DNA of 64,000 nt from an uncultured bacterium (GTDB lineage: Bacteria; Patescibacteriota; Minisyncoccia; UBA6257; 2-01-FULL-56-20), in contig CAWJQC010000004.1 of NCBI GenBank assembly GCA_963844965.1, forward strand, positions 41,609-105,608, read 5' to 3'. The notes under the pieces were generated by a model. The model saw only the letters and a list, made by a program, of their open reading frames with translations. It was not told the origin of the DNA and searched no databases. Both the position numbers and the translations under genes were made by a program. Positions 3,596 to 56,305 of this stretch are shown here, piece after piece (positions within the stretch are counted from its first letter, which is position 1; each line of letters opens with the position of its first letter).

Positions 3596-4545
3596 TTTAG
3601 CCTTTCAACAACTTCCATAGCGACCCTTCCAGCGTCTTCCTTACTTTTGAAGAAAGCACCCGCGGCGCCCTTGTGGCCGCCGCCGCCGTATTTTGCCATA
3701 AGTTCACCAGCATGAATTTTTGCCTCGCGCATTCGCCAGGGATTCGCTGAAAGCCCTACCTCAAAAAGGTTGTCGCTCCTTTGCAGGCGGACGGCATAGA
3801 TGGTCTTCGGATAAAGATAGTATGGCGCGAACCGCAGCTTGCCGCTACCTGCCAATGTCAGGTCTATAAATGTCGCCTTGCCGCGAACTTTTATGTTCTT
3901 CCGGTAAAATCTCAATCCCAATCTTATCTTTTTGCGCGCACCGGCTGCGCATTCCTGAACGCGCGGGTCTTTAGCTATTTCCCTGAGCGACTTCCGGGAA
4001 AGAAGGTCTATGAGCGGCCGGCGCGTGCTGTTATCATTGGCGTTCTTTTCAATGAAGGCGTCAATGCGGAGTGCCGGCTCCTTTACTTCAAGCGTCTGCT
4101 TGGCGGATCCATAACCCGCTCCGTCAATAATGTCCAGCCATTTCGTCAACTCCTTGAAGTGCTTGGGTGGTTTCCAGTCGAAACCGACGCGCAGTGACGC
4201 CTCGGTAAAATGGCACGCCGACTTATACGACGGATCGTAACGGCGGAACTTGGATGGTCTGAACTTTTTCCGCCAGCTTTCTTTCTGAAAAGCGGTCGGA
4301 TGGTGGTCAAACCAAAAAAAAGCCCCTGGGTGGTATTGGAAATCCAAAACGATGGCCGGATTGCGCCTGCCGCGGAAGAGTTTGTGCTTCAAAAAGAATT
4401 TTTCGTCCCGCCACTGCGGTAAAATATCAAAACCGAGAGGAACATAACGCTCAATATCGTCGCCGCGGTCGCGCAAAAATGCAAGCATCACCGCCGCTGA
4501 CGCCCATCCGTCAAAATCGTTGTGAAAATAGACGTCGTAAGTCAT
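3592..4545 (-). CDS. DHH-family phosphoesterase (DHH/DHHA1)
   Basis: 317 aa. It has an N-terminal HNDFDGWAS motif (DHH motif I-like) and a C-terminal GGGGHKGAAG (DHHA1 GGGH motif). Confidence 0.6.
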   Translation of the reverse strand: MTYDVYFHNDFDGWASAAVMLAFLRDRGDDIERYVPLGFDILPQWRDEKFFLKHKLFRGRRNPAIVLDFQYHPGAFFWFDHHPTAFQKESWRKKFRPSKFRRYDPSYKSACHFTEASLRVGFDWKPPKHFKELTKWLDIIDGAGYGSAKQTLEVKEPALRIDAFIEKNANDNSTRRPLIDLLSRKSLREIAKDPRVQECAAGARKKIRLGLRFYRKNIKVRGKATFIDLTLAGSGKLRFAPYYLYPKTIYAVRLQRSDNLFEVGLSANPWRMREAKIHAGELMAKYGGGGHKGAAGAFFKSKEDAGRVAMEVVERLK

Positions 4546-41436: not shown

Positions 41437-43541
41437 TTACCGTTTTTTGCCTTCGATAATCAACTGCGCAATGTTCTGCGGCACTGGCTCATAATGGTCA
41501 AATTCCATCGTGAACGCTCCCCTGCCTTGCGTCATGGAACGCAACTCGGTCGCGTAGCCGAACATTTCCGCGAGCGGAACTTTGGCGTCAATCACTTTCA
41601 CGTTGGGCCGGTCGGAAATTTCCTCAATCCTGCCGCGCTTGGAGTTCAAGTTGCCGCTCACCTCGCCCAAAAATTCTATCGGGATGATAACCTGAAGCTT
41701 CATTATCGGCTCCAATATGACCGGCTTCGCGCGCTTCGCCGCTTCCTGCAGGGCGATGGAGCCAGCAATTTTGAAAGCCGCCTCCGACGAGTCAACTTCA
41801 TGGAAAGAGCCGTCATAGAGCGAAACTTCAAGGTCGGTCATCGGGTAGTGGGCAACGACCCCCTTACTCAATGCTTCCACCACACCTTTTTCCACCGCCG
41901 GGATGAATTCGTTCGGAATGATCCCTCCCTGATATCGTCTATGAAAACAAATCCCTTGCCGCGCTCCAAGGACTTCACGCGCAGCCAGACATGTCCGTAT
42001 TGTCCGCGGCCGCCGGATTGCCTGATATATTTGCCTTCCGCCTCCGCTTCGCCCATAATCGTTTCTTTATAGGCAACCTGCGGCCGCCCCACCGAACCCT
42101 CAACACCGAACTCCCGCTTCATCCTGTCAACAATAATTTCCAGGTGCAACTCGCCCATGCCAGAAATAATCGTCTCGCCAGTTTCCAGGTCGCCCGCCAC
42201 GCGGAAAGTCGGGTCTTCTTCCGCCAAGCGGTGCAGGGCAATGCTCATTTTTTCCTGGTCGGCTTTCGTCTTCGGCTCAATGCGAATGCCGATCACCGGC
42301 TCGGGGAATATGATCTTCTCAAGCACTATCGGCGCGTCGGGACTGCAAAGCGTGTCGCCGGTCGTCGTATTCTTCAAACCGACGATCGCCGCGATATCTC
42401 CGGCATGCACTTCCTCCATTTCTTCGCGGTGGTTGGCGTGCATCCGCACCACGCGGCCGACACGTTCCTGCTGGTCCTTCTTGGAATTCAAAACGTACGT
42501 GCCGCGCTTCAAAACGCCGGAATAATTCCGGAAATAGGTTAAAGTGCCGACGTACGGGTCTGTCGCAACCTTGAAAGCCAGCGCCGAGAACGGCTCTTCG
42601 TCCTTGGGGTGCCGCACGATATCGGCGCCGCTCTTCGGGTCAATGCCCTTAACCGGAGGAAGGTCCGTCGGCGCGGGCAAATATTCCACAACCGAGTCAA
42701 GCATAAATTGCACGCCTTTGTTTTTCAGGGCCGAACCGCAAAGCACCGGCACAATTTTGTTGGCAATAACGGCTTTGCGCAAAACGCGGCGCAAATCTTC
42801 AATGTCAAGCTCAGTACCATCCAAATACTTGGTCATCAAGGCATCGTCATTGTCCACAATGCGTTCCACAAGTTCATGCCGCGCCTTCTTCACGTGCACT
42901 TTCATATTTTCCGGCATCGGAATTTCTGTAATCTTTTCGCCATGTTCACCCTCCGAGCCGTACGCCTTTTCGGTTAAGAGGTCTATCATTCCCACGAATT
43001 CACCCTCAAGGCCGATGTTCAACTGCAAAGGCAGTGCGTTCGGCGTGAGCCGTTCTTTGATTGACTGCAAACTTTTTTCAAAGCTCGCACCCAAGCGGTC
43101 AAGTTTGTTAATAAAGCAAATCCGCGGCACGTGGTACTCATCGGCATAGCGCCAGTTCGTTTCCGACTGCGGCTCAACACCTGCGACGCCATCAAAGACG
43201 ACAACCGCGCCGTCCAAAACGCGGAGCGAACGCTTCACCTCCACCGTAAAGTCAATGTGCCCCGGCGTGTCAATCAAATTTATCATATGCTCAAATTTTT
43301 TGTCGCCCTTGCGGTAAGTCGGAATCCAGAACGCCGTCGTTGCGGCGGAAGTAATCGTAATTCCCCTCTCACGTTCCTGCTCCATCCAATCCATCACCGT
43401 GTCGCCCGTGTGCACCTCGCCGATTTTGTGACTGACGCCCGTATAAAAAAGCACCCGTTCGCTCACGGTGGTTTTGCCGGCATCTATATGGGCGATGATG
43501 CCGATGTTACGGACCTTCTCGACAGGATACATTCTAGGCAT
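41437..43541 (-). CDS. fusA: elongation factor G, split by one frameshift near 41920-41933
   Basis: [35 protein letters not shown]. At ..FIDDIR the frame slips; adding one G in atcaGGGaGGGatc restores [30 protein letters not shown], which joins the two track ORFs. Confidence 0.9.
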
Positions 43542-46121: not shown

Positions 46122-46221
46122 ATCAACAATAATATCCGAAAACCGCGGTCTTTGCCAATTAAGAAAAAACAAATTAAAATGAGCATGTCGCCCTCGTGGT
46201 GAAACTTGCCCTCCCACCTTT

Positions 46222-46294
46222 GTCCCTGTAGCTCAACGGATAGAGCGTGTGGCTTCGAACCACAAGGTTGCAGGTTCAAATCCTGCCAGGGACG
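46222..46294 (+). tRNA. tRNA-Arg (anticodon TCG)
   Basis: GTCCCTGTAGCTCAACGGATAGAGCGTGTGGCTTCGAACCACAAGGTTGCAGGTTCAAATCCTGCCAGGGACG, with loop CTTCGAA. It is bracketed by the perfect inverted repeat CCCTCCCACCTTTG / CAAAGGTGGGAGGG. Confidence 0.9.
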
Positions 46295-46321
46295 CAAAGG
46301 TGGGAGGGTGAAGATATCATA

Positions 46322-46367
46322 TGTGGCTTCGAACCACAGGTTCCAGGTTCGAGTCCTGGCGAGGGCA
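46322..46367 (+). pseudogene. 3' fragment of a different tRNA-Arg(TCG) (anticodon arm to acceptor 3' strand)
   Basis: TGTGGCTTCGAACCACA is identical to the anticodon arm of the neighbouring gene. It is followed by a different T-arm (CCAGGTTCGAGTCCTGG) and acceptor strand (CGAGGGC). There is no 5' acceptor or D-arm. Confidence 0.7.
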
Positions 46368-46464
46368 CACACAACATTTCGTATCGCGGCATCGTGGGGG
46401 CCGACGCTCTAGCGCGACCCCGAGAGGCCTACCGATACGGAATATCGTCCTCCTTATTTCTCTA

Positions 46465-46832
46465 TTAAGAGCCGGCAAAAATACTTTTGATAAGGCTTGT
46501 AATGCCGCCTGCTATCAGCACGATCACAAAACCGACTGCCGCATACGTAAGGGTCTTCTTCCCTTTCGAAAATTTTTCAGGATCGCCAGCCGCCGTCATC
46601 ATTTGAAACCCGCCGACAAGCACCATTATACTTGTGAGCGGCGCTGCAATATCGTAAAAAAGAAATCCCGCCACACTATTCGCGACGGACACCAAGCTGC
46701 CCCCCCATTCGTACAATTTGGATCGAACGGATTAAAAAGTTGGTTGGGAGGGCACGCGGCAAAAGCTAACTTCGCGACGGTTAAGGCGCTGACTGTTATT
46801 AAAATCTTTGTTGTGCGGCGGATAATATGCAT
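46465..46832 (-). CDS. small two-TM pilin-like protein (TrbC/VirB2-like T4SS-pilin type seen in CPR), frameshifted in a C7/G7 run at ~46697-46705
   Basis: A signal-like N-terminus (MHIIRRTTKILITVSALTVAKLAFA) is in one frame. SLVSVANSVAGFLFYDIAAPLTSIMVLVGGFQMMTAAGDPEKFSKGKKTLTYAAVGFVIVLIAGGI is in the next. The family assignment is from memory of the pattern. Confidence 0.45.
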
Positions 46833-46883
46833 ATGGATTATTATAGCATACGAGATAGCGTGGCAGAAGCCCATTTTGTTTAG

Positions 46884-48221
46884 CTATTTCTGCAAGCTCA
46901 GAATTTTATTCCTGAACGTCAACTTACTCTTGAAGCAAGATAGCAATTCGCGTTTCTCGACCGTGCTGCCCTTTTTGAGAAGATATTTTGCGTACGTTTT
47001 AAGGTCAATTTCTTTAGTGGCCGCTTTCGATCCTTCTCCCAAGACATCGTTCGCGAATTTGCGATATCGTTCCATCTCGTCTTCGAATTTCTTCTGCATC
47101 CCAATCTCACTGATATCCATCTCGTCAATGATAGCGAGAAGTTGAGCGATCAATTCCTCTTCGCGAATGTATCCGCACTTGCAATCCTTATCTTTCGAGC
47201 GTGAGCATCCATAGTACACGTACCGCGCCGTCGTTCCATCCTTGTGCGCCTTATATTTCTCGCACGCACTGATGCCCGATCCGCATAGGCCGCACGAGAT
47301 CAGTTTCGTAAACGAAAATTCCTTTATCTCCGACCTGATGACAAAATCTCGGTGCAGCTGCTCCTGTACTTTATCGAACAGCTCCCGCGAAATGATTGCT
47401 TCGTGCTTGCCGCTGTACCAGTTACCGCTCTTCAGTGGATACTCAAAGATGCCGCAGTAAAATGGATTTTTGAGGATGATATAAATATTGGATAACGAAA
47501 GCACTTTCCCATTCTTTGTTCTGAATTTGATTTCCGACTTCAGCCAATGATAAAGCTTCCGGCCCGACCATTGTTCGTCGGCGACTTTCTGGAGCATTTG
47601 CTTGATGACGGGCGCTCGCAGGGGATCAATGATAACTTCACAAGGACGGTCGGTGCTCTTCTCGTTAAGATACCCTGTCGGTGCGATAGACGGACGCAAA
47701 CCTTGTTCGCACCGCATCCGTAATCCGCGCTTCACGTTTTCCGATTTGTTATCATTCTCAAGTTTCGCTTGGCTGCACAAAATCATCAACATGAATTTCT
47801 CGCTCGGCGAGTTCGTGAATTTCTGGCTGAAGGTTCTGATCTCGATAAGTAATTTTTGATCCATCAAGTCCACCAAGCCGCCAAGGTCGCCCGCGTTGCG
47901 GCTCAAGCGATCCGGCGCCCATGTAAGGATACCGTTGAATTCGCCGGAACGAATATCAATAAGCAACTCGTTAAAAATTTTTCGCTGGCCGACAGCTTTT
48001 GCGGAATGGCTTTCCTTTCTAACTTCGGCGATCTCAAGGTTATCGCGCTCGGCGATTTTCAGCATCTCCTTTATCTGACTATCAATGGAAAGCACTTGCT
48101 GTTCCTCGCTCTCCGTACTTTTCCTCGCATAGAGGCAGTATTTTATTTTTATCGCTTCGGCCTTTGTCGCAGAAACGCCCGACTGATCCCAGCCCTTTGG
48201 TATATTTGTTATTTTCTCCAT
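46884..48221 (-). CDS. large serine recombinase (resolvase domain, recombinase domain, zinc ribbon)
   Basis: YCLYARKSTESEEQQVLSIDSQ (catalytic Ser region), LTWAPDRLSRN, later CGLCGSGISAC...YYGCSR. About 445 aa from MEKITNIPKGW. Confidence 0.85.
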   Translation of the reverse strand: MEKITNIPKGWDQSGVSATKAEAIKIKYCLYARKSTESEEQQVLSIDSQIKEMLKIAERDNLEIAEVRKESHSAKAVGQRKIFNELLIDIRSGEFNGILTWAPDRLSRNAGDLGGLVDLMDQKLLIEIRTFSQKFTNSPSEKFMLMILCSQAKLENDNKSENVKRGLRMRCEQGLRPSIAPTGYLNEKSTDRPCEVIIDPLRAPVIKQMLQKVADEQWSGRKLYHWLKSEIKFRTKNGKVLSLSNIYIILKNPFYCGIFEYPLKSGNWYSGKHEAIISRELFDKVQEQLHRDFVIRSEIKEFSFTKLISCGLCGSGISACEKYKAHKDGTTARYVYYGCSRSKDKDCKCGYIREEELIAQLLAIIDEMDISEIGMQKKFEDEMERYRKFANDVLGEGSKAATKEIDLKTYAKYLLKKGSTVEKRELLSCFKSKLTFRNKILSLQK

Positions 48222-48377
48222 ACCTAAGGGATGCCGCAACGGCGGAAGGAGTCCAGAGCATCCTTGTCGGTAACTCAAAACTCGATATCAGGCGACGAAG
48301 GGGCAAAGAAGGCAAGCAGAGTGATTTCCCCAGCCACCCTCTTTAAGACCATTTATAAACGAGCTATAATAATTCTA

Positions 48378-49918
48378 ATGTTCAGTACCAATGCGCGACG
48401 GGTAATGTGTGTCGTTGCAGGTTTGATTTTGACTTCGCTCGCTTGGATCGGATGCGCGAATTATTTCAACTGGTACGCCGACACAATCGGTCCCGTGGCC
48501 TGGTTTGGCACCCTGTTCCTATTTGCCGCAGCAGGAGTCGGCGCCGGTCTGCTCTTCGAAAAATCGACCAGGGCTCATTATCAGTCTGCAATGACGGCAA
48601 ATCCCCAACTTAAGGAACGAATGGAAACTACTCTCGGAAGGCGCCTCAAGTTTGGCTACGTGCTTGCCGGGCTTTATGTCGCCTATAGGCTTTTCGGATA
48701 TTATCTGTTTTTTGTTCTCGGCTTCTCTTTATCTCCAGCGGCCCATCTTCAACTGATTCTTTCGGCGGTCGTTGAGGCGGTTGTCGCCTTAGTGTGTTTG
48801 TTGCTTTATTGGGAGCGCGGAGAAGATGCCAGTACGGCGAATATAAAAAAGCATTTGCTTGTCTATGTTATTTTCTTCTTCGTTCTCGCAGTGGTTGACG
48901 GTGTCGCACTGCTTGTCTTGAAGCCCGCTTCGGCGGTAGTTCAAACACCCGCAACTCTCGAATCCGCGCTCGAAGCATTTTCCGCCGAGGAATTTTCCGG
49001 GGCAGCAGCAAAAGGGGCGCAAGCGCTACAAGTAAAAGATATGGTCGGGATAGCTTCGGCGCTCCAGAAGATCAATGCTCATTTTAACCAATCATTAACC
49101 AGCGCGGATCTTTATGACATGCGGTACACCATTAATTGGGGCTTGAATGAAGCAATTGCATATTACCAATTCGAGGCCGACGATCAATCCATTTACGCTC
49201 TTCAGCTTACCGAAAATCTTGCGACCAGCAATATTGCCGAGAGTTATTATTCGTTTCCGGCAGGTAGCACCTCCGCTCTAACCGGACAGAGGTATCTCTT
49301 CGTGGCAAACGGATTCAAACGCGGCCGAAACTTTGTTCCTTGATACTGCAGGTGCTTATCTCAACCTACCTATGCAATCTCCGATTATGAACGAAGACCT
49401 TTATTATCCTTTAACGGCATCTGCTCCTTCGTGGACAGTGTCCGTCCTCTTTACGAGCACTACGGAGGAGGGACAACAGCAAGTTCACGCTCTATAATAC
49501 CTTTGACGCGAATACCGAGCGGGTGACGACGAGTACTTACGTTCCCTCCGGAAACTATTTGCCCTTGTCACCACAATCGCCATCCGTGTCGATGAACGTT
49601 GCTCCGCCTCCCTCAAATTCCTCCCTGAAAATAATTTCTCCTGCCAACGGACAGAAATTGAAGCAGGGGTCAACATACACGATTAGCTGGCAGTCGTCTG
49701 GTGATTTCAATTTTGTCGTCGGGAATATCGTCGCTCCCGTTCCGGGCGAAGGGGGTGTAGGAATATTCCAAGCCCCCGCGACTTCAAGCCGCTATAGCTG
49801 GACCGTGCCGACCGGCTTCCCACCTGGGATGTATAAACTGGGGCTTGCGGGCAGCGATCAAGATTTTGTGAATCATAATTTTGCCTCGTCCAGTGTTTCA
49901 ATCTACATCATTCCGTAG
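48378..49918 (+). CDS. membrane-anchored surface protein, probably one ~510-aa gene broken by two frameshifts (~49320-49345 and ~49480-49495)
   Basis: TM-rich N-terminal ORF (48378..49343), then the open frame ..SNAAETLFLDTAGAYLNLPMQSP..TSTTEEGQQQ, then KFTLYNTFDANTERVTTSTYVP... to 49918. The end carries an Ig-like YTISWQSSG motif. Confidence 0.4.
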
Positions 49919-49930
49919 TAAAACTTATTT

Positions 49931-50378
49931 AAGATGAGACGCGGCCTTGGGACACCCTTTTAGTGCCTCATTTGTCTCATTTGCATAAAAAAGCCTTATT
50001 TTATGGGCATCGATTTTTCGGAATGAGACACTGCTTTGTATAAATCGGACACGTCCAGAATGGCATTTCTGTGTCCGATTTGTCCGATTTGCCTCCAAAA
50101 TGTTACACACCACAAAGTGCAAAAGTTGTGTAACATTTGTAACATTTTGAGGAAAAGCGGGGGGTTGGAACATGGGAATGGGACACGAAAAATCGACCTC
50201 TTGTGTCCCATTTGTTCCATTTTGTAGAAATGAGCCCTGCTGCGTTACGTTTGCCGCGTTACATTCCGAACGCTCAGAAATCTTTGATTTATCTACCTAA
50301 CAGGACAGCTCCCCAAAAAAGTGCCGCCCTCTCAACTTTTCACATCGCGTTACATTTGTTACATGTTACATTTGATCC
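49931..50378. repeat. array of related hairpin / direct-doublet units with a covarying central triplet (GTGT-NNN-ATTTGT-NNN-ATTT(T)G)
   Basis: Units: AAATCGGACAC-18nt-GTGTCCGATTTGTCCGATTTG (50042-50091); AAAATGTTACAC-19nt-GTGTAACATTTGTAACATTTTG (50097-50149); AATGGGACAC-16nt-GTGTCCCATTTGTTCCATTTTG (50176-50224). CTC and TAC variants sit at 49963-50031 and 50242-50378. Confidence 0.7.
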
Positions 50379-50580
50379 CTCCGAAAACCGCGACCGTGAG
50401 CCTTCCAAGGGAAATTTGGGGTCGTCCTCAAAAACCCTTATACTGATTGCACAGGGAAAGTCCGCATCCGCGAGGGGGCACAACAAAACTATATCTTTTT
50501 AGTTACCGCACGGTTGTCGTCGAGACGCGTGAAAAACAAAAAAGGAGCTTGCAGAGCTCCTCTATCTAACTCAACCTAAC

Positions 50581-51300
50581 TCAACGGGATGCGGCGGAAA
50601 CATGGGACAGCACGTCCGCAATGGCGTTCACGAGAACTCTTAATCCGTCTCTCCGGTAGAAAATTTCCTCACCGTCTGCCGGTCCGAAGCGATCAATGTG
50701 GCGGTGAGATTTTTTCCTTATGAAACGACTGTTCGAAAGAGCGTGTAAGTTTACCCTTATGTTCTCAATCATTTTCTCGTGATAAGGGTTCTCCCTGCCA
50801 TGCCATTGCTCACAAAGGGCAATCTCGCCTTCGGCGGTCGTAAAAAACAACGACCGAAGGAAGTAATTAAAGTGACGCTCAACGGCAGTCTCAACCAATC
50901 TTTGCAACTCCGGCCCGCTTTTCGCGCTTCCCAAGACCGGTATCGCCGAGATATCGTTACCATACTTCTTTTTGGCCAAGTGGTCCCAGGCATAACCAAG
51001 AGCGATGAGCCAACGTTTGCCGTGGACGGTGGCAAGGAACACGTCGCCGTACTTCATATATAACCTTTCCGAATTATTGCCGTTGACGGCATGGTCGTCA
51101 ACGATCGCGTAGACAGATGACGGAATGGGCAACTCGATTTTCCTACGGGGACGCAATCTATAATCATCCCAAAGTCCGTGAAATACCCCGTAGGTAAGTT
51201 CCTCAGGCGTAATCAACCGCCTGAACGGATGGACAATAGAACGAAGAGCACCGTGCTTTCCTTCCAGCACTTCCTTCAGGCGTTTTCTAAAAATTTTCAT
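50581..51300 (-). CDS. hypothetical protein
   Basis: A ~239 aa ORF from MKIFRKRLKEVLEG. No family recognised. Confidence 0.45.
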   Translation of the reverse strand: MKIFRKRLKEVLEGKHGALRSIVHPFRRLITPEELTYGVFHGLWDDYRLRPRRKIELPIPSSVYAIVDDHAVNGNNSERLYMKYGDVFLATVHGKRWLIALGYAWDHLAKKKYGNDISAIPVLGSAKSGPELQRLVETAVERHFNYFLRSLFFTTAEGEIALCEQWHGRENPYHEKMIENIRVNLHALSNSRFIRKKSHRHIDRFGPADGEEIFYRRDGLRVLVNAIADVLSHVSAASR

Positions 51301-51628
51301 CCGACCCCCAATCAAAAGATTTTCACTCAAACAACTGCAAGCAGTATAACGAAATTTTTTGAATTTGGCAAATTTGATATTTTTCGCCGCAGAAGCCAAC
51401 GCCACTTCTCGGCCATAAAAATATCCGCAAACGGCAACCGTTTGCGGATTTCAACTTATCGCGACGCACTCTCAACGCACCTCACGCACAAAACACGCAC
51501 CTGCCGCCAAGGAATCTCGCCCTCAGCGGCGAGAAGAAAATCTCCGGCCAATATAAAGCCCATGGATTCAAGAATTCGCGCGCGGCATTTGCAACAATTC
51601 ACTTTCACGCCGACCTTCCTTAGAATTT

Positions 51629-52648
51629 TCAATCGCGCCTCTTCAAAACAGGCGGCTGCTCCTCGCCCTTATTACCTTTATTCTCGCCGCCCTGCTGTGT
51701 CTGGTCGGTCGGCTCGCGCTTCTTAAGCGTCGGCTTTCCTTCGGTTACTTTCCTTCTGCTCGTCACAATTTGCAGCCGATCTTTCACGTCATCAAACTCG
51801 GATGTAGACACGAGATACTGGTCCTTTTTCGGAAGAATTTCCTTAATCTCCTTCTCTATTTTTATAATCCTGTCACCAGTTGGCGGATGGTCGGCAAAAA
51901 CGTTTGGCACGCTTCCGGGTATTCGCCTTTCTTCTTCAATAACCTTGGAAAACATACCTACGTAGGACTCCGGGTCGTAGCCCGCCTTATACATGTACTG
52001 CAATCCCAGATAGTCCGCCTCGGCCTCGTCGTTGCGGCTGAATTTTAAAAACGCAATAGGTATGCCAAAGTTCATGGCCTCCATAGTCGCAATGTAAACA
52101 GGATAAGACATGGGTACGAAGATAAGAGGAATTGTGGCGTATTGGAGGAGCGTGGCTTTTGTCATCTGCGACGCCCAATGCCGGCACGCAACGTGCGCAA
52201 TCTCGTGCGCCATCACTCCGGCAACCTGACTTTCTCCATCGGCAACAAGAAGCAGGCCAGAATTAATATACAAGAACCCGCCAGGGAGAGCGAAGGCGTT
52301 GATTCCGGGCGCATCTATAACTTTCACCGTAAGAGGAACTTTCAGGTCCGAATTCCGCGCAATGTTCTGAGCGACGCGGTTGACATACTCGCCCACCACA
52401 GGGTCGGTCAAAAGTTTCGCCGATTTCTCAACTTCGGTGGAGTATTGTTTCCCGATGGCAATCTCTTTTTCAATGGAAATTATTGACTTGTGCGCGACCT
52501 TGCGGTTGCCGATTTCTTCGGGGTTGTCTTTGCTCTTCTGTCCGTCCGCCGAAGCGCCATAAGCCCTGGGAGGGCACGCCATAATGGCCAAAAGGATAGC
52601 AAGAATAATTACAAGAATCAGGTATCGTTTCTTGACCGTACCGCTCAT
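51629..52648 (-). CDS. M48-family zinc metallopeptidase (BepA/Ste24-like), N-terminally anchored
   Basis: GVMAHEIAHVACRH (HExxH) and NDEAEADYLGLQYMYKAGYDP, with an N-terminal TM helix (YLILVIILAILLAIMA). Confidence 0.8.
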   Translation of the reverse strand: MSGTVKKRYLILVIILAILLAIMACPPRAYGASADGQKSKDNPEEIGNRKVAHKSIISIEKEIAIGKQYSTEVEKSAKLLTDPVVGEYVNRVAQNIARNSDLKVPLTVKVIDAPGINAFALPGGFLYINSGLLLVADGESQVAGVMAHEIAHVACRHWASQMTKATLLQYATIPLIFVPMSYPVYIATMEAMNFGIPIAFLKFSRNDEAEADYLGLQYMYKAGYDPESYVGMFSKVIEEERRIPGSVPNVFADHPPTGDRIIKIEKEIKEILPKKDQYLVSTSEFDDVKDRLQIVTSRRKVTEGKPTLKKREPTDQTQQGGENKGNKGEEQPPVLKRRD

Positions 52649-53623: not shown

Positions 53624-56305
53624 ATGAGTGGGATAAAAATAAATCTTTCTCTCAGCGAAATCCCAGGCATCGGCCCGCGTTTTCTGGAACGGCTGGGAAA
53701 ACTCGGCATAAAAACCGTCCGTGATCTCATTTATCATTTTCCGGCCCGCTACGAGGATTTCTCCCAGATATACAAAATTTCCGACGTTGAGCCGGGGGAA
53801 CAGGTAACAATACGTGGCGTTGTTGAAGACACCAAACTGCGGCGGACTTGGAGAAAACACATGACAATCGCCGAAGCCCTGATCCGCGACGATTCCGGAA
53901 CGATACGCGCCATCTGGTTCAACCAACCATATGTTTTGAACACTCTGCGGGTCGGGCGCACGGCGAATTTCGCAGGCAAAATATCCATATCGGACGAGGA
54001 CGAAATTTATTTGAGCCACCCGGCTTATGAAATCGTCGGCAGTCGGGAGTCGGGAACGGAGAAGCAAGAAACAAAACATACAGCGCGGCTCGTCCCCATT
54101 TATCCCGAAACGCGCGGCCTCACATCCAAGGGGTTGAGATATCTGATCCAGCCAATTCTGAAAAACAGCGAACAGCTGGAGGAATGGCTGCCGCCGGAAG
54201 TTCTGCGCGAAAATAATTTTCCCGAAATAAACCTTGCGCTCAGATCCATACACTTCCCCGAAAAAACCGAGGATGCTCTTGTCGCGAAAAAACGCTTCAC
54301 TTTTGAAAACCTGTTCCTGCTGCAACTCGCCAATCTTGAACAAAAATTGAAACTCGCGCGCGAAAAAGCGCCAGTGATCAAAACCGACATAGAACACCTG
54401 AAAAAAATGATCTCGGAACTGCCATACGAACTCACGTTTTCGCAAAAGAAATCATTGTGGGAAATCATCCAGGACCTCGCCAAAAAACAGCCGATGAACC
54501 GCCTGCTCCAGGGCGACGTGGGCTCCGGCAAGACGGTTGTCGCGGCGCTCGCCGCGGTAATTACCGCGGAAAACGGGCTGCAGACCGCGTTTATGGCGCC
54601 AACCGAGGTTCTCGCGAGACAGCATTTTGAAACATTGAAAAAATTATTCGCCGGAATTCCCTCGATCCATCAACCCGTAGTTGGGCTTCTCACGTCAAGC
54701 GAAGCAAAAATCCTCTACGCGACAGACCTTGAATCAAAAATCAAAAAACCGGAGTTGCAGGAAAAAATAAAAAACGGCGAGGTAAAAATAGCCATCGGCA
54801 CGCACGCTTTGATACAAAAAGACGTGGCGTTCGGCAATCTTGCCTTTATCATCATTGACGAACAGCATAGATTCGGCGTCTCACAACGAGCTGCGCTCGT
54901 TCGCGGACAGACGCAGAATGATAATACGCGGACAGACGCTGAACAACTACTATACGAAAAAACGACGTTTGAGATAAGAAAAAGTCTGTTTGAGGTGAGA
55001 AAACAACTGGGCCTTGGTCATAAAGAAGTGGTGTATCAGAAAGCATTGGAGGAGGAGTTCAAGAAATCCGGTGTAATATTTGAGAAAGAAAAGAAAATTC
55101 CTGTCGTTTATAACAAGAAAAAGATTGGCGTTTATCAACCGGATTTTGTCATAGATAATGAAGTAATTTTGGAACTTAAGGCTCTTCCCTTTATCGGCGG
55201 CATCGAAAAAAAACAGCTGTGGAATTATTTGAGGGGTTCGGATTACAAACTCGCGCTTATGGCAAACTTTGGACCGGAAAGATTATCCATAGAGCGGGTA
55301 GTATACGATATTGCGCGGAGTCGGCGGCTGTCAGCGTCCGGTCAGCAACTGTCCGCGCCTATCCCCCACCTCCTCTCAATGTCCGCCACGCCAATCCCAC
55401 GCACGCTCATGCTCACCGTCTTCGGCGATTTGGATATATCGCTCATCACCGAACTTCCCGCCGGCAGAAAAAATATCGTAACAAAAATAATCCCCCCACG
55501 GGGCAGGAGCGAAGCCTATGAATTCATCCGCGGCGAAGTGAGGGCCAGCCGGCAGGTTTTTGTCATCTGCCCCCGCATTGACAAACCGCAGACAGGCGCA
55601 GACCACACGCAGACAAACGCAGACAAGACACAGACAGACGCAGACAATTTTCAGCGGCTGTCTGCGTCAAGTCAGCGACTGTCCGCGTTAAGTCCACGTA
55701 AGTCCGCGTTAGTGTGGGAAGTAAGATCCGTGAAAGAAGAATTTGAAAAATTATCCAAGAAAATTTTTCCGGATTTGCGCGTCGCCATGCTCCACGGCCA
55801 GCTCAAGCCAAAAGAAAAAGCGGGTATCATGAAGGACTTCCGCAACTACAAAATAGATATTCTCGTTTCAACTTCCGTCGTGGAAGTTGGCGTGGACGTG
55901 CCGAACGCAACAATAATGATGATTGAAGGCGCCGATCGCTTCGGGCTGGCTCAGATCTACCAATTCCGCGGACGCGTGGGGCGCGGCGAACACCAATCCT
56001 ATTGCTTCCTGTTCACGGATTCGTCCGCCAAAACTACGCGCGAGCGGCTGCAGGCCGTCCTTGAAGCCAAGAACGGCTTTGAGCTCGCCGAGAAGGACCT
56101 GAAGATCCGCGGTCCCGGCGAATTCCTCGGCACGGCGCAGACCGGCTTTCCCGACACGGCGATGAGCGGCCTCATGAACCCGGAGCTCGTGAAAGCAAGC
56201 CGCGAAGCGGCGGCAAAAATCGTCCAAAAAGATCCGCTTTTCAAAAATTATCCGCTCCTGAAAACCAAATTAAACGAGTTCCGGAAGGAAATCCACTTGG
56301 AGTAG
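53624..56305 (+). CDS. recG: ATP-dependent DNA helicase RecG carrying two in-frame insertions
   Basis: Wedge/OB N-terminus; motif I GDVGSGKT; motif II [11 protein letters not shown]; motif III [9 protein letters not shown]; later [15 protein letters not shown] and QFRGRVGRG. 893 aa against ~680-700 expected. The excess is accounted for by 54908-55357 and 55589-55708. Confidence 0.92.
   Translation: [893 protein letters not shown]
54908..55357 (+). other. 450-nt in-frame insertion in recG encoding a GxxExxY-family (PD-(D/E)XK-like) domain flanked by inverted word repeats
   Basis: [87 protein letters not shown] matches the GxxExxY pattern. The flanks are cgcggacagacgcagaat..tacgcggacagacgctga and the reverse-complement-like ctgtcagcgtccg..ctgtccgcgc. 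Confidence 0.75.
55589..55708 (+). repeat. 120-nt in-frame palindromic insertion in recG (solo copy of the same word-repeat arms)
   Basis: cagacaggcgcagaccacacgcagacaaacgcagacaagacacagacagacgcagaca attttca gcggctgtctgcgtcaagtcagcgactgtccgcg. It translates as [40 protein letters not shown]. Confidence 0.7.

Follow-up and report, generated by a model that had tools for sequence, protein, structure and literature searches.

A conserved repeat module at the distal end of large serine recombinase islands in Patescibacteria

Introduction

What is an array of short hairpin-forming repeats, whose central letters change in step with one another, doing in a non-coding gap of a compact bacterial genome? 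The array lies in the non-coding interval 49919-50580 of a 64,000-nucleotide stretch of DNA, referred to here as the window, which comes from an uncultured member of the Patescibacteriota (Minisyncoccia; UBA6257; 2-01-FULL-56-20; NCBI GenBank assembly GCA_963844965.1, contig CAWJQC010000004.1, positions 41,609 to 105,608 of the forward strand). An earlier note, made by a model from the letters alone, had described at least three units of one architecture in this gap, each with an arm, a spacer, an inverted arm and an immediate direct repeat, and with a triplet that differs between units and changes in a compensatory way within them. It had offered three options for the array: a tandem family of structured non-coding RNAs (ncRNAs), iteron- or operator-like sites with programmable specificity, or recombination or replication sites of the surrounding segment, which bears a serine recombinase gene. 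Patescibacteria have tiny genomes, and very little is known of their regulation or mobile elements; a module conserved across the whole group and tied to integrative islands offers a handle on DNA exchange in these bacteria.

Here the observation is confirmed and its context resolved, and from both we infer a function. The array represents, in expanded form, the repeat region of a conserved non-coding module, about 150 nt long, at the distal end of islands that encode a large serine recombinase (LSR), and it is of a known kind, a set of short sites repeated on the arm of an integrative element. To our knowledge, the association with the integrase, the three-copy architecture with a covarying triplet and the coexistence of several triplet classes have not been described for LSR elements. 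Large serine integrases are valued for genome engineering as enzymes that need just two short sites, and a conserved repeat arm could change this picture of them.

Anatomy of the array

Positions 49930-50224 of the window hold four units, all read on the minus strand, and in that sense each comprises two tandem 9-mers of the form AAAT-xyz-AC, a spacer of 16-22 nt and one inverted 11-mer (Table 1); where at least three units of one architecture had been proposed, four are found. The imperfect GAG unit, named like the others after its triplet (CTC in the earlier note), is homologous to the GAG units of two loci from other genomes, L017 and L037 (such loci are given L numbers throughout), and its class is the dominant one in other genomes. 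An extra inverted GAG arm stands on the opposite side of its doublet, and the same < > > < layout is found in L017, L037, L007 and L026. The ortholog of the CGG unit has GGG in L037, a compensated change, and an intermediate form in L017, and GTT units occur elsewhere in L062, L037, L007, L026, L027 and L070. In the fourth unit, GGG/GGA, the arms are doubled on both sides: the right copies differ (GGG, GGA) and the left copies differ likewise, GGAAC (50167-50171) pairing with GTTCC (50214-50218) and GGGAC with GTCCC, and the whole folds as one extended hairpin; L062 carries the same pair. The TAC variant, which had been counted with the units, is not a unit of the same architecture because the inverted arm is absent; it consists of five direct TAC/GTA copies starting at 50244, 50258, 50349, 50358 and 50365 (span 50244-50373), and its block 50340-50374 is conserved in L017 and L037. 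Beyond these copies, the region 50388-50443 contains CCGCGACCGTGAGCC, the reverse complement of a CTCGGTCGGGGC-like block, and CAAAAACCCTTATAC, the reverse complement of a TTAAGGG-like block, both of which belong to the module described below.

The array is real and chance is excluded. With at most one mismatch, the doublet pattern GTNNNATTTGTNNNATTT is matched 6 times where 0.63 matches are expected, and 5 of the 6 fall in this gap; the arm-spacer-arm pattern has 2 matches against 0.00 expected, and shuffled sequences yield none. By folding energy, the hairpins of the CGG and GGG units have z-scores of -4.0 to -4.5, those of the GTT and GAG units z-scores of -1.3 to -2.3. A covariance model (R1), a check that the earlier note had recommended, was built from 46 units of other genomes only (L007-L125) and recovers exactly the four units in the 64-kb window, all on the minus strand (E 4.7e-9 to 7.8e-6), with nothing else below E 0.1; by this match the window units are members of the same hairpin/doublet family as those of the other genomes.

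Recurrence and triplet covariation across genomes

One genome per species, for 185,579 species, was scanned with the pattern AAATNNNACAAATNNNACACN{12,24}GTGTNNNATT, all three triplets being left free; by a hand estimate, chance would yield a few hits. The scan returned at least 119 species-level loci, nearly all from Patescibacteria and 1 to 3 per genome, and the recurrence in related genomes to which the earlier note had tied its proposal is thereby established. Among the matches listed are Parcubacteria lineages, Saccharibacteria, Uhr-, Kaiser-, Berkel-, Peregrini- and Doudnabacteria, and Microgenomates, as well as about ten AT-rich matches in other phyla that look like chance. Several metagenome-assembled genomes (MAGs) labelled "uncultured Gammaproteobacteria" (L022, L024, L025, L030, L069, L079) hold bona fide GAG units, and two of them (L024, L025) also hold the same 1.7 kb element, described below, as Uhrbacteria; their labels may be wrong.

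In the minus-strand sense of the window, the dominant unit reads CAAATGAGAC-AAATGAGACAC-(17-21 nt, often TAyTTAAGGGTATnTT)-GTGTCTCATTTT, GAG being the dominant triplet. The AAAT and AC(AC) flanks are invariant and variation is confined to the triplet, while spacers range over 12-24 nt across genomes and extra arms inside spacers, doubled arms and < > > < layouts are all seen. Arrays of several units, drawn from the same triplet classes, are also present in L007/L052, L008, L017, L026, L027, L037 and L062, those of L017 and L037 being homologous to the window array at both ends (73-83% identity).

The compensatory nature of the triplet changes could be assessed in 120 distinct units among the matches listed, not selected for agreement. 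All three triplets are identical in 56 of them. The proximal triplet is other than GAG in 53 units, and in 18 of these the arm matches it, whereas 5000 permutation trials give 1.8 on average and never more than 7; together with the CGG/GGG ortholog pair, this concordance bears out the compensatory change that had been read from the window. The arm agrees equally often with the distal and with the proximal copy (72/120 each). In a subset selected for agreement, and hence biased, the arms form 97% standard pairs and both-sided changes are found only in the three central pairs.

The module and its link to a large serine recombinase

The units belong to a larger conserved entity. Twenty-one diverse loci share a module of 147-167 nt with a sharp left edge; the module runs from a small CGGGT-CTAGA-ACCCG-type hairpin through TTAAGGG and CTCGGTCGGGGC to the unit, and the conserved blocks of spacer and module (TTAAGGG, CTCGGTCGGGG) are without pairing covariation. 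The module is the sole homology between L100, L102 and L103; L049 has an LSR segment with a module on either side, and in L049 and L031 the module boundary lies 68 nt upstream of the doublet. Its left end was also considered as a real tRNA fragment, which is plausible by eye, but T-arm pairing is lost and the similarity in the window is not significant.

Recombinase genes accompany the motif with a fixed polarity. Homologs of the window recombinase, next to which the earlier note had suggested looking, were detected by hidden Markov model (HMM) search in 18 of the 119 motif loci listed, and in 18/18 the LSR lies downstream of the unit, on the same strand as the doublet-to-arm direction, 17 to ~4,400 nt away. 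A sample blind to the motif, made up of 80 LSR homologue loci from metagenomes (60-71% identical) in which a unit was sought within 6 kb, contains five loci with a unit, upstream and co-oriented in 5/5. Many of the 80 have a convergent tRNA gene 80-200 nt past the stop codon, and the LSR island of L175 is bracketed by a clean 18-nt repeat of the 3' end of tRNA-Gln. A regex search for catalytic motifs found a tyrosine recombinase in no locus. These LSR homologues are a tRNA-targeting island family, of which the unit module, present in 5/80 motif-blind loci, is therefore the arm of some lineages only, and the link between LSR and unit is not obligatory.

The closest relative of the window element is L062, whose LSR is 67% identical and whose array, in the order GTT, GGG/GGA, GAG, GAG, stands directly upstream of the LSR gene. 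The simplest arrangement is a 1.7 kb element consisting of module, unit and LSR, found in seven species with 82-85% nucleotide identity and unrelated flanks. Its left edge is sharp (TGGCGGTGTACACGCG...) and lies just past host terminators; some 150 nt further comes the GAG unit, then ~130 nt and the LSR, and the element ends at most 45 nt past the stop codon. It is thus a mobile element that encodes an LSR only, plus its non-coding arm. Tandem elements occur in L080, and also in L049.

Other genes adjoining units encode an excisionase-type helix-turn-helix (HTH) protein, ImmA with an XRE repressor, and a large terminase, and fit prophage or island edges. As general readers of the units, the excisionase-type HTH (in 2 loci only) and a Zn-finger-like family (about 11 loci, adjoining the unit in 5) were rejected. 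A protein family of the form CxxC...WYDKWGIKCxxC, without Pfam match, is seen in L009, L033, L050, L116 and L002, where its gene is the first past the unit, and also in L030, L066, L106 and L115. The gene lies 21-28 nt downstream of the GAG unit in L009, L033 and L050 and overlaps the arm in L116; in L002 the distance is ~130 nt, or 24 nt for an upstream open reading frame (ORF) recognised by eye.

The island of the window and its boundaries

The window island measures about 4.1 kb (46367-50483) and reads, on the minus strand, as an attachment-site (att)-type repeat, the module blocks (50443-50388), the GTA copies, the GGG/GGA, GTT, CGG and GAG units, two cargo ORFs, the LSR leader and the LSR, and tRNA-Arg (Table 1). 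In a relative, L207, whose EF-G is 90% identical to that of the window, the island is absent and the order is M48, 670 nt, tRNA-Arg, M50, as compared with 5.3 kb from M48 to tRNA-Arg in the window; by this sequence comparison the window copy is an insertion, which a close relative with the same flanking genes lacks. The island starts at the 3' end of the ancestral tRNA-Arg (46366). Its distal boundary is probably the att-type repeat at 50460-50483, a qualification made because the similarity of this repeat to the window's own tRNA-Arg end is weak and, taken alone, not significant.

The description of the gap as lying downstream of both neighbouring genes is too simple, as the minus-strand gene 50581-51405 ends at its own terminator, outside the island and on the host side, and the plus-strand gene is island cargo. 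The second cargo ORF ends 13 nt before the GAG unit, and the cargo separates the array from the LSR gene by 1.65 kb. A homologue of the 50581-51405 ORF beside the motif elsewhere, which the earlier note had raised as a further possible association, was not found, nor were homologues of the cargo ORFs or of the 274-aa ORF found in any related locus.

Table 1. Features of the array, the island and the related 1.7 kb element; positions are those of the window unless a locus is named.
Feature	Position	Strand	Details
tRNA-Arg locus, recombinase-proximal island boundary	46190-46366	+	
Large serine recombinase gene	46884-48221	-	Pfam Resolvase + Recombinase + Zn_ribbon_recom; PHROG integrase
Recombinase non-coding leader	48226-48276	-	conserved in 19 inspected of 80 homologue loci
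Two cargo ORFs between array and recombinase	48231-49918	+	370-aa membrane-like protein; 131-aa Ig-like protein (second ORF)
GAG unit (imperfect)	49930-49984	-	covariance-model match E 7.8e-6; on the plus strand, left arm 49931-49940, right copies 49965-49973 and 49974-49983; on the minus strand, tandem copies CAAATGAGAC / AAATGAGgCAC, 22-nt spacer, imperfect inverted arm GCGTCTCATCTT
Extra inverted GAG arm	50022-50034	+	GAATGAGACAC; opposite side of GAG doublet
CGG unit	50040-50092	-	covariance-model E 1.8e-8; fold z = -4.4 / -4.0; left arm 50042-50052; right copies 50071-50081, 50082-50090
GTT unit	50096-50149	-	covariance-model E 4.7e-9; left arm 50098-50108; right copies 50128-50138, 50139-50149
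GGG/GGA unit, arms doubled on both sides	50166-50224	-	covariance-model E 1.2e-8; left arms 50167-50173, 50177-50186; right copies 50203-50213, 50214-50224
GTA-class direct copies	50242-50374	-	GTTACGTTT, GTTACAT, GTTACATTT, GTTACAT, GTTACATTT; inverted arm absent
Conserved blocks of generic left-end module	50388-50443	-	by-eye comparison with 21-locus module alignment
tRNA-3'-end-like repeat (probable distal boundary)	50460-50483	+	GTCCGCATCCGCGAGGGGGCACA; two repeats of this type that follow tRNA-Arg in L207 align with it
Intrinsic terminator of minus-strand gene 50581-51405	50541-50563	-	terminator scan; outside island, host side
1.7 kb element	L012 614-2360		LSR at L012 1014-2315; equivalents in L024, L025, L080 (two copies), L094, L095, L119, L177, L184

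Several further observations concern the ends of the island and its surroundings. The leader of the recombinase gene spans ~80 nt before the start codon (GTTAyCAAC..CTGGACtCC..GGTTGCGTCATCCCTTGT), is present in loci with or without units and is out of frame with the gene in some of them; the left ends of pairwise nucleotide matches cluster at about -100 to -160 from its conserved core. The ancestral tRNA-Arg is split in the D-loop by ~108 nt into parts (46190-46204 and 46313-46366) identical to the tRNA-Arg(TCG) of L207, and the insert is a perfect 13-bp inverted repeat (46209-46221 / 46296-46308) around an intact, different tRNA-Arg(TCG) (46222-46295); the L207 tRNA-Arg is also flanked by a long inverted repeat. 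L207 has tRNA-3'-end-like repeats at 3700-3925, GGGGGTTCGAATCCCTCCGGGGGCACA and GAGATTCCCTCCGGGGGCACT, 21 and ~215 nt past tRNA-Arg, which are probably scars of earlier integrations at the same hot spot.

Outside the island, the M48 peptidase (51629-52648), whose gene is present in L207 as well, has named homologues (65-73% identity) from Terriglobia/Acidobacteria, some annotated as beta-barrel assembly-enhancing protease, and is probably an old horizontal acquisition, given that the host is a patescibacterium. These M48 matches had pointed to an acidobacterial host, which EF-G rejects: the EF-G of the window is 80-90% identical to Liptonbacteria and Minisyncoccia proteins, and the host is Liptonbacteria-like. 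The EF-G gene (41437-43541, minus strand) comprises two overlapping ORFs, of 557 aa (41868-43541) and 152 aa (41437-41895), where relatives have one 701-aa protein; the split is either a frameshift or a sequencing error. The RecG helicase (53624-56305) carries an inserted PD-(D/E)XK_3 nuclease domain (residues 447-558), and L207 has a free-standing PDDEXK_3 gene between S7 and EF-G.

Searches for a described class

The gap, the far end and 18 related loci were compared with Rfam 15, at the gathering threshold and at E 10, and gave only chance-level microRNA/snoRNA matches. Viral contigs scanned with the recombinase protein contained no relatives, PHROGs recognised only the integrase among the neighbouring ORFs, and GenBank phages showed no DNA match to the gap and only distant relatives of the integrase (<31% identity among the ten listed matches; all <60%). 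In the literature library that was searched, neither the motif string nor CPR, serine recombinase and prophage terms led to anything relevant.

Known repeat classes were also considered and rejected on the anatomy of the units. Origins of replication (oriC) with DnaA boxes differ in register and consensus, and the units have multiple loci per genome and are linked to a recombinase; parS is excluded by the 18-nt spacer, and integron attC sites by the absence of a tyrosine integrase and of R'/R'' cores. Copy number is far too low for DNA uptake sequences or repetitive extragenic palindromes (REPs), and the REP/BIME type of palindrome is likewise at odds with one cluster in the 64-kb window and one to few loci in the scan of other genomes, figures which are not whole-genome counts. 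A CRISPR array does not fit sites of 9-11 nt with inverted partners and no constant repeat/spacer period. No sigma-70 promoter is predicted in the unit in the window, L012 or L029, and its A/T-rich hexamers have no -35 at a workable distance when inspected by hand, and a structured RNA over the full 150-nt module is not supported by RNAalifold, which gives arm pairing only, the GCC...GGC block being without covariation.

What the units may do

The reading that we tentatively prefer is that the units are clustered protein-binding sites with an accessory or regulatory role on the island arm. The 9-11 bp sites AAAT-xyz-AC(AC) would be bound as duplex DNA by a sequence-specific protein, for which the LSR itself, an element-encoded partner and a host factor are candidates, and two tandem sites with one or two inverted ones would assemble a small nucleoprotein complex beside the att-type boundary repeat, controlling recombination directionality, island gene expression, or both. 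Specificity would be set by the central triplet, as read by the protein, with GAG as the class linked to this LSR clade and the others (CGG, GTT, GGG/GGA, GTA) either serving related factors or being retained arms of earlier islands. The module occurs in the context of small integrative islands and prophages of Patescibacteria, with the LSR, where detected, at the tRNA-proximal end, and both the window and the 21 aligned modules present repeated short direct and inverted sites in an arm beside an att boundary, as arm-type sites require. Sites for one protein are favoured because the distal copy is as constrained as the proximal one, which a single hairpin does not need, because the flanks are invariant and the triplet alone varies, because the module is conserved as sequence blocks without pairing covariation, and because the number, orientation and spacing of the sites differ between genomes; their position beside an att-type boundary and, in minimal elements, upstream of the LSR points to a complex with an accessory or regulatory role.

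A number of points weigh against this proposal. We know of no accessory sites used by LSRs such as the phiC31, Bxb1 and A118-type integrases, and in 75 of the 80 LSR homologue loci no unit lies within 6 kb, which means that the LSR family functions in its absence. Conversely, about 100 of the 119 listed motif loci have no LSR in the 8 kb examined, although their islands may be longer than that, since terminase-bearing prophages are among them. No gene family besides the LSR recurs with units, no binding protein was identified among the genes adjoining them, and a single LSR cannot explain five triplet classes in one array. A rigid dimer is hard to reconcile with spacers that differ by 4-5 bp, the units of the window, L012 and L029 have no predicted sigma-70-type promoter, and mismatches between arm and copy are more often G·U-compatible on the LSR-sense strand (51) than on the other (24), a bias that hints at a constraint on RNA.

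That strand bias belongs with the next candidate, a possible but more doubtful one, in which the units are RNA-level hairpins acting as terminators, attenuators or insulators in an LSR-sense transcript at the outer arm of the island, where they would block read-through from host genes or gate downstream island genes, the tandem copy providing an alternative 5' arm and the differing triplets preventing mispairing between neighbours. The standard pairing and compensated changes of the arms (97% in the agreement-selected subset), fold z-scores down to -4.5, a T run after the arm and an A run before the doublet are all consistent with it, as are the 1.7 kb element, where, on the LSR-sense strand, the arm and an adjacent TGAGACA make up a hairpin with a T tract that resembles a canonical terminator, and the convergent gene ends found a median of ~30 nt (range -30 to +1474) from the arm in 66/98 loci. 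On the other hand, loops of 16-22 nt on AU-rich stems make poor terminators, and the window units lack the combination of G+C-rich stem, 3-8 nt loop and T tract, and the terminator scan finds none at them; host-side terminators are already present just outside the module. The equal constraint on the distal tandem copy and stem flanks that are invariant over phylum-level distances are more than structure needs, one to few loci per genome contrast with terminators at every operon, and there is neither an Rfam family nor a conserved structure beyond arm pairing. The same two negatives, and the varying arrangement of the sites, leave the option of a tandem structured ncRNA family unsupported. In its explicit form, a row of small structured RNA genes each with its promoter and terminator, it is the least probable explanation that we consider: the region does fold more stably than shuffled sequence, whichever strand is taken (z = -4.5 and -4.0), and its unit architecture is repeated, but promoter-like sites were not found, Rfam gave no match even at E 10, the units are 55-110 nt apart without conserved inter-unit elements, and most genomes have one unit inside a longer, sequence-conserved module.

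The suggestion that the units are sites of the serine-recombinase segment stands as a matter of context, given the island and the fixed polarity, but not as crossover sites. LSR recombination sites, either att cores or secondary sites at which island segments are inverted, deleted or shuffled, would match in size, arm-18 bp-arm being ~40 bp like an LSR attB and ~50 bp with the extra copy, like an attP, and the spacer has a conserved motif; a few hybrid units exist, with a reciprocal pair in L026, and unit order differs between the related L007 and L026 arrays. Such a role is nonetheless improbable, because the boundaries of the mobile segments are elsewhere, ~100-150 nt off the unit at tRNA-3'-end-like sequence (about 150 nt from the left boundary in the 1.7 kb element), and true multi-nucleotide hybrids number 3/120, the other arm-versus-copy differences being single substitutions. 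Moreover, units are missing from most of the integrase family, as the 75 loci show, and LSR half-sites are, in general, not tandem repeats. It is somewhat less unlikely that the array is a fossil record, in which islands of several lineages integrated in turn at a tRNA hot spot, later deletions spared their arms side by side, and only the GAG unit, if any, still works. Several att-type scars at the hot spot in L207, the tandem elements of L049 and L080, the constant position of the LSR-linked GAG class nearest to cargo and LSR, and the missing inverted arm of the GTA copies agree with this, yet att-type repeats are absent between units, the array is inherited as a block whose GAG and GTA ends are homologous in L017, L037 and the window, and non-GAG units (CGG and GTT here) keep perfect three-way agreement, which argues for continuing selection; serial integration may explain how arrays grow, though not that agreement. 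About as unlikely is a stronger version of specificity, in which the triplet is a modular code, each island or prophage having its own class, read by a cognate protein or by a unit transcript that pairs with DNA or RNA, and arrays would be multi-key control regions through which one LSR island could sense the factors of several co-resident elements or be mobilised and regulated by these. Were it true, large serine integrases would have an accessory, programmable arm that they are currently thought to lack.

Under the preferred protein-site reading, and provided that the specificity resides in a protein, the covarying triplet would be a natural case of re-targetable recognition. The 1.7 kb element, with integrase and arm only, would be a small system in which to study how directionality or expression is controlled. 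The interest would be narrower if the units prove to be insulating hairpins.

Comparison with known systems

In genomic setting, the islands recall the tycheposons of Prochlorococcus, a member of a different phylum, which are reportedly small cargo islands at tRNA genes with a tyrosine or large serine integrase, tRNA-end repeats and tandem accretion; we know of no description of a hairpin/doublet module in them. The iterons of geminivirus and other rolling-circle Rep proteins resemble the units in having two direct and one inverted copy of a core that is the same within a set and differs between lineages, where it is a specificity determinant for the cognate protein; here, however, there is no Rep/HUH gene or nonanucleotide hairpin, the setting is a chromosomal island, and one array holds several classes. 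With the attP/attB sites of phiC31, Bxb1, A118 and SPbeta, the window shares the recombinase domains (Resolvase, Recombinase, Zn ribbon) and a unit of 40-50 bp with inverted arms, but the units lie inside the element, include tandem repeats and are dispensable for most LSR relatives.

The nearest functional analogues are res subsites and the arm and Xis sites of lambda-like elements. Subsites II and III of the Tn3 and gamma-delta res sites, like the arrays of L062 and the 1.7 kb element, form a dyad array that directly precedes a serine recombinase gene in the same orientation, with a plausible autoregulatory and architectural role. Unlike them, the present units accompany a large serine integrase instead of a small resolvase, have the crossover outside the array, consist of tandem copies with 16-22 bp spacers and differing core triplets, and in the window are separated from the gene by cargo. 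The arm-type and Xis/Cox sites of lambda- and P2-like elements differ in that the recombinase here is an LSR, with no arm-binding domain known and no tyrosine recombinase detected, in that several triplet classes share one array, and in that binding here is putative. They are alike in their short tandem direct sites of 9-11 bp with inverted partners, in a non-coding arm ~50-200 bp from the att crossover at one end of the element, and in an island adjacent to a tRNA gene with the integrase at the tRNA-proximal end.

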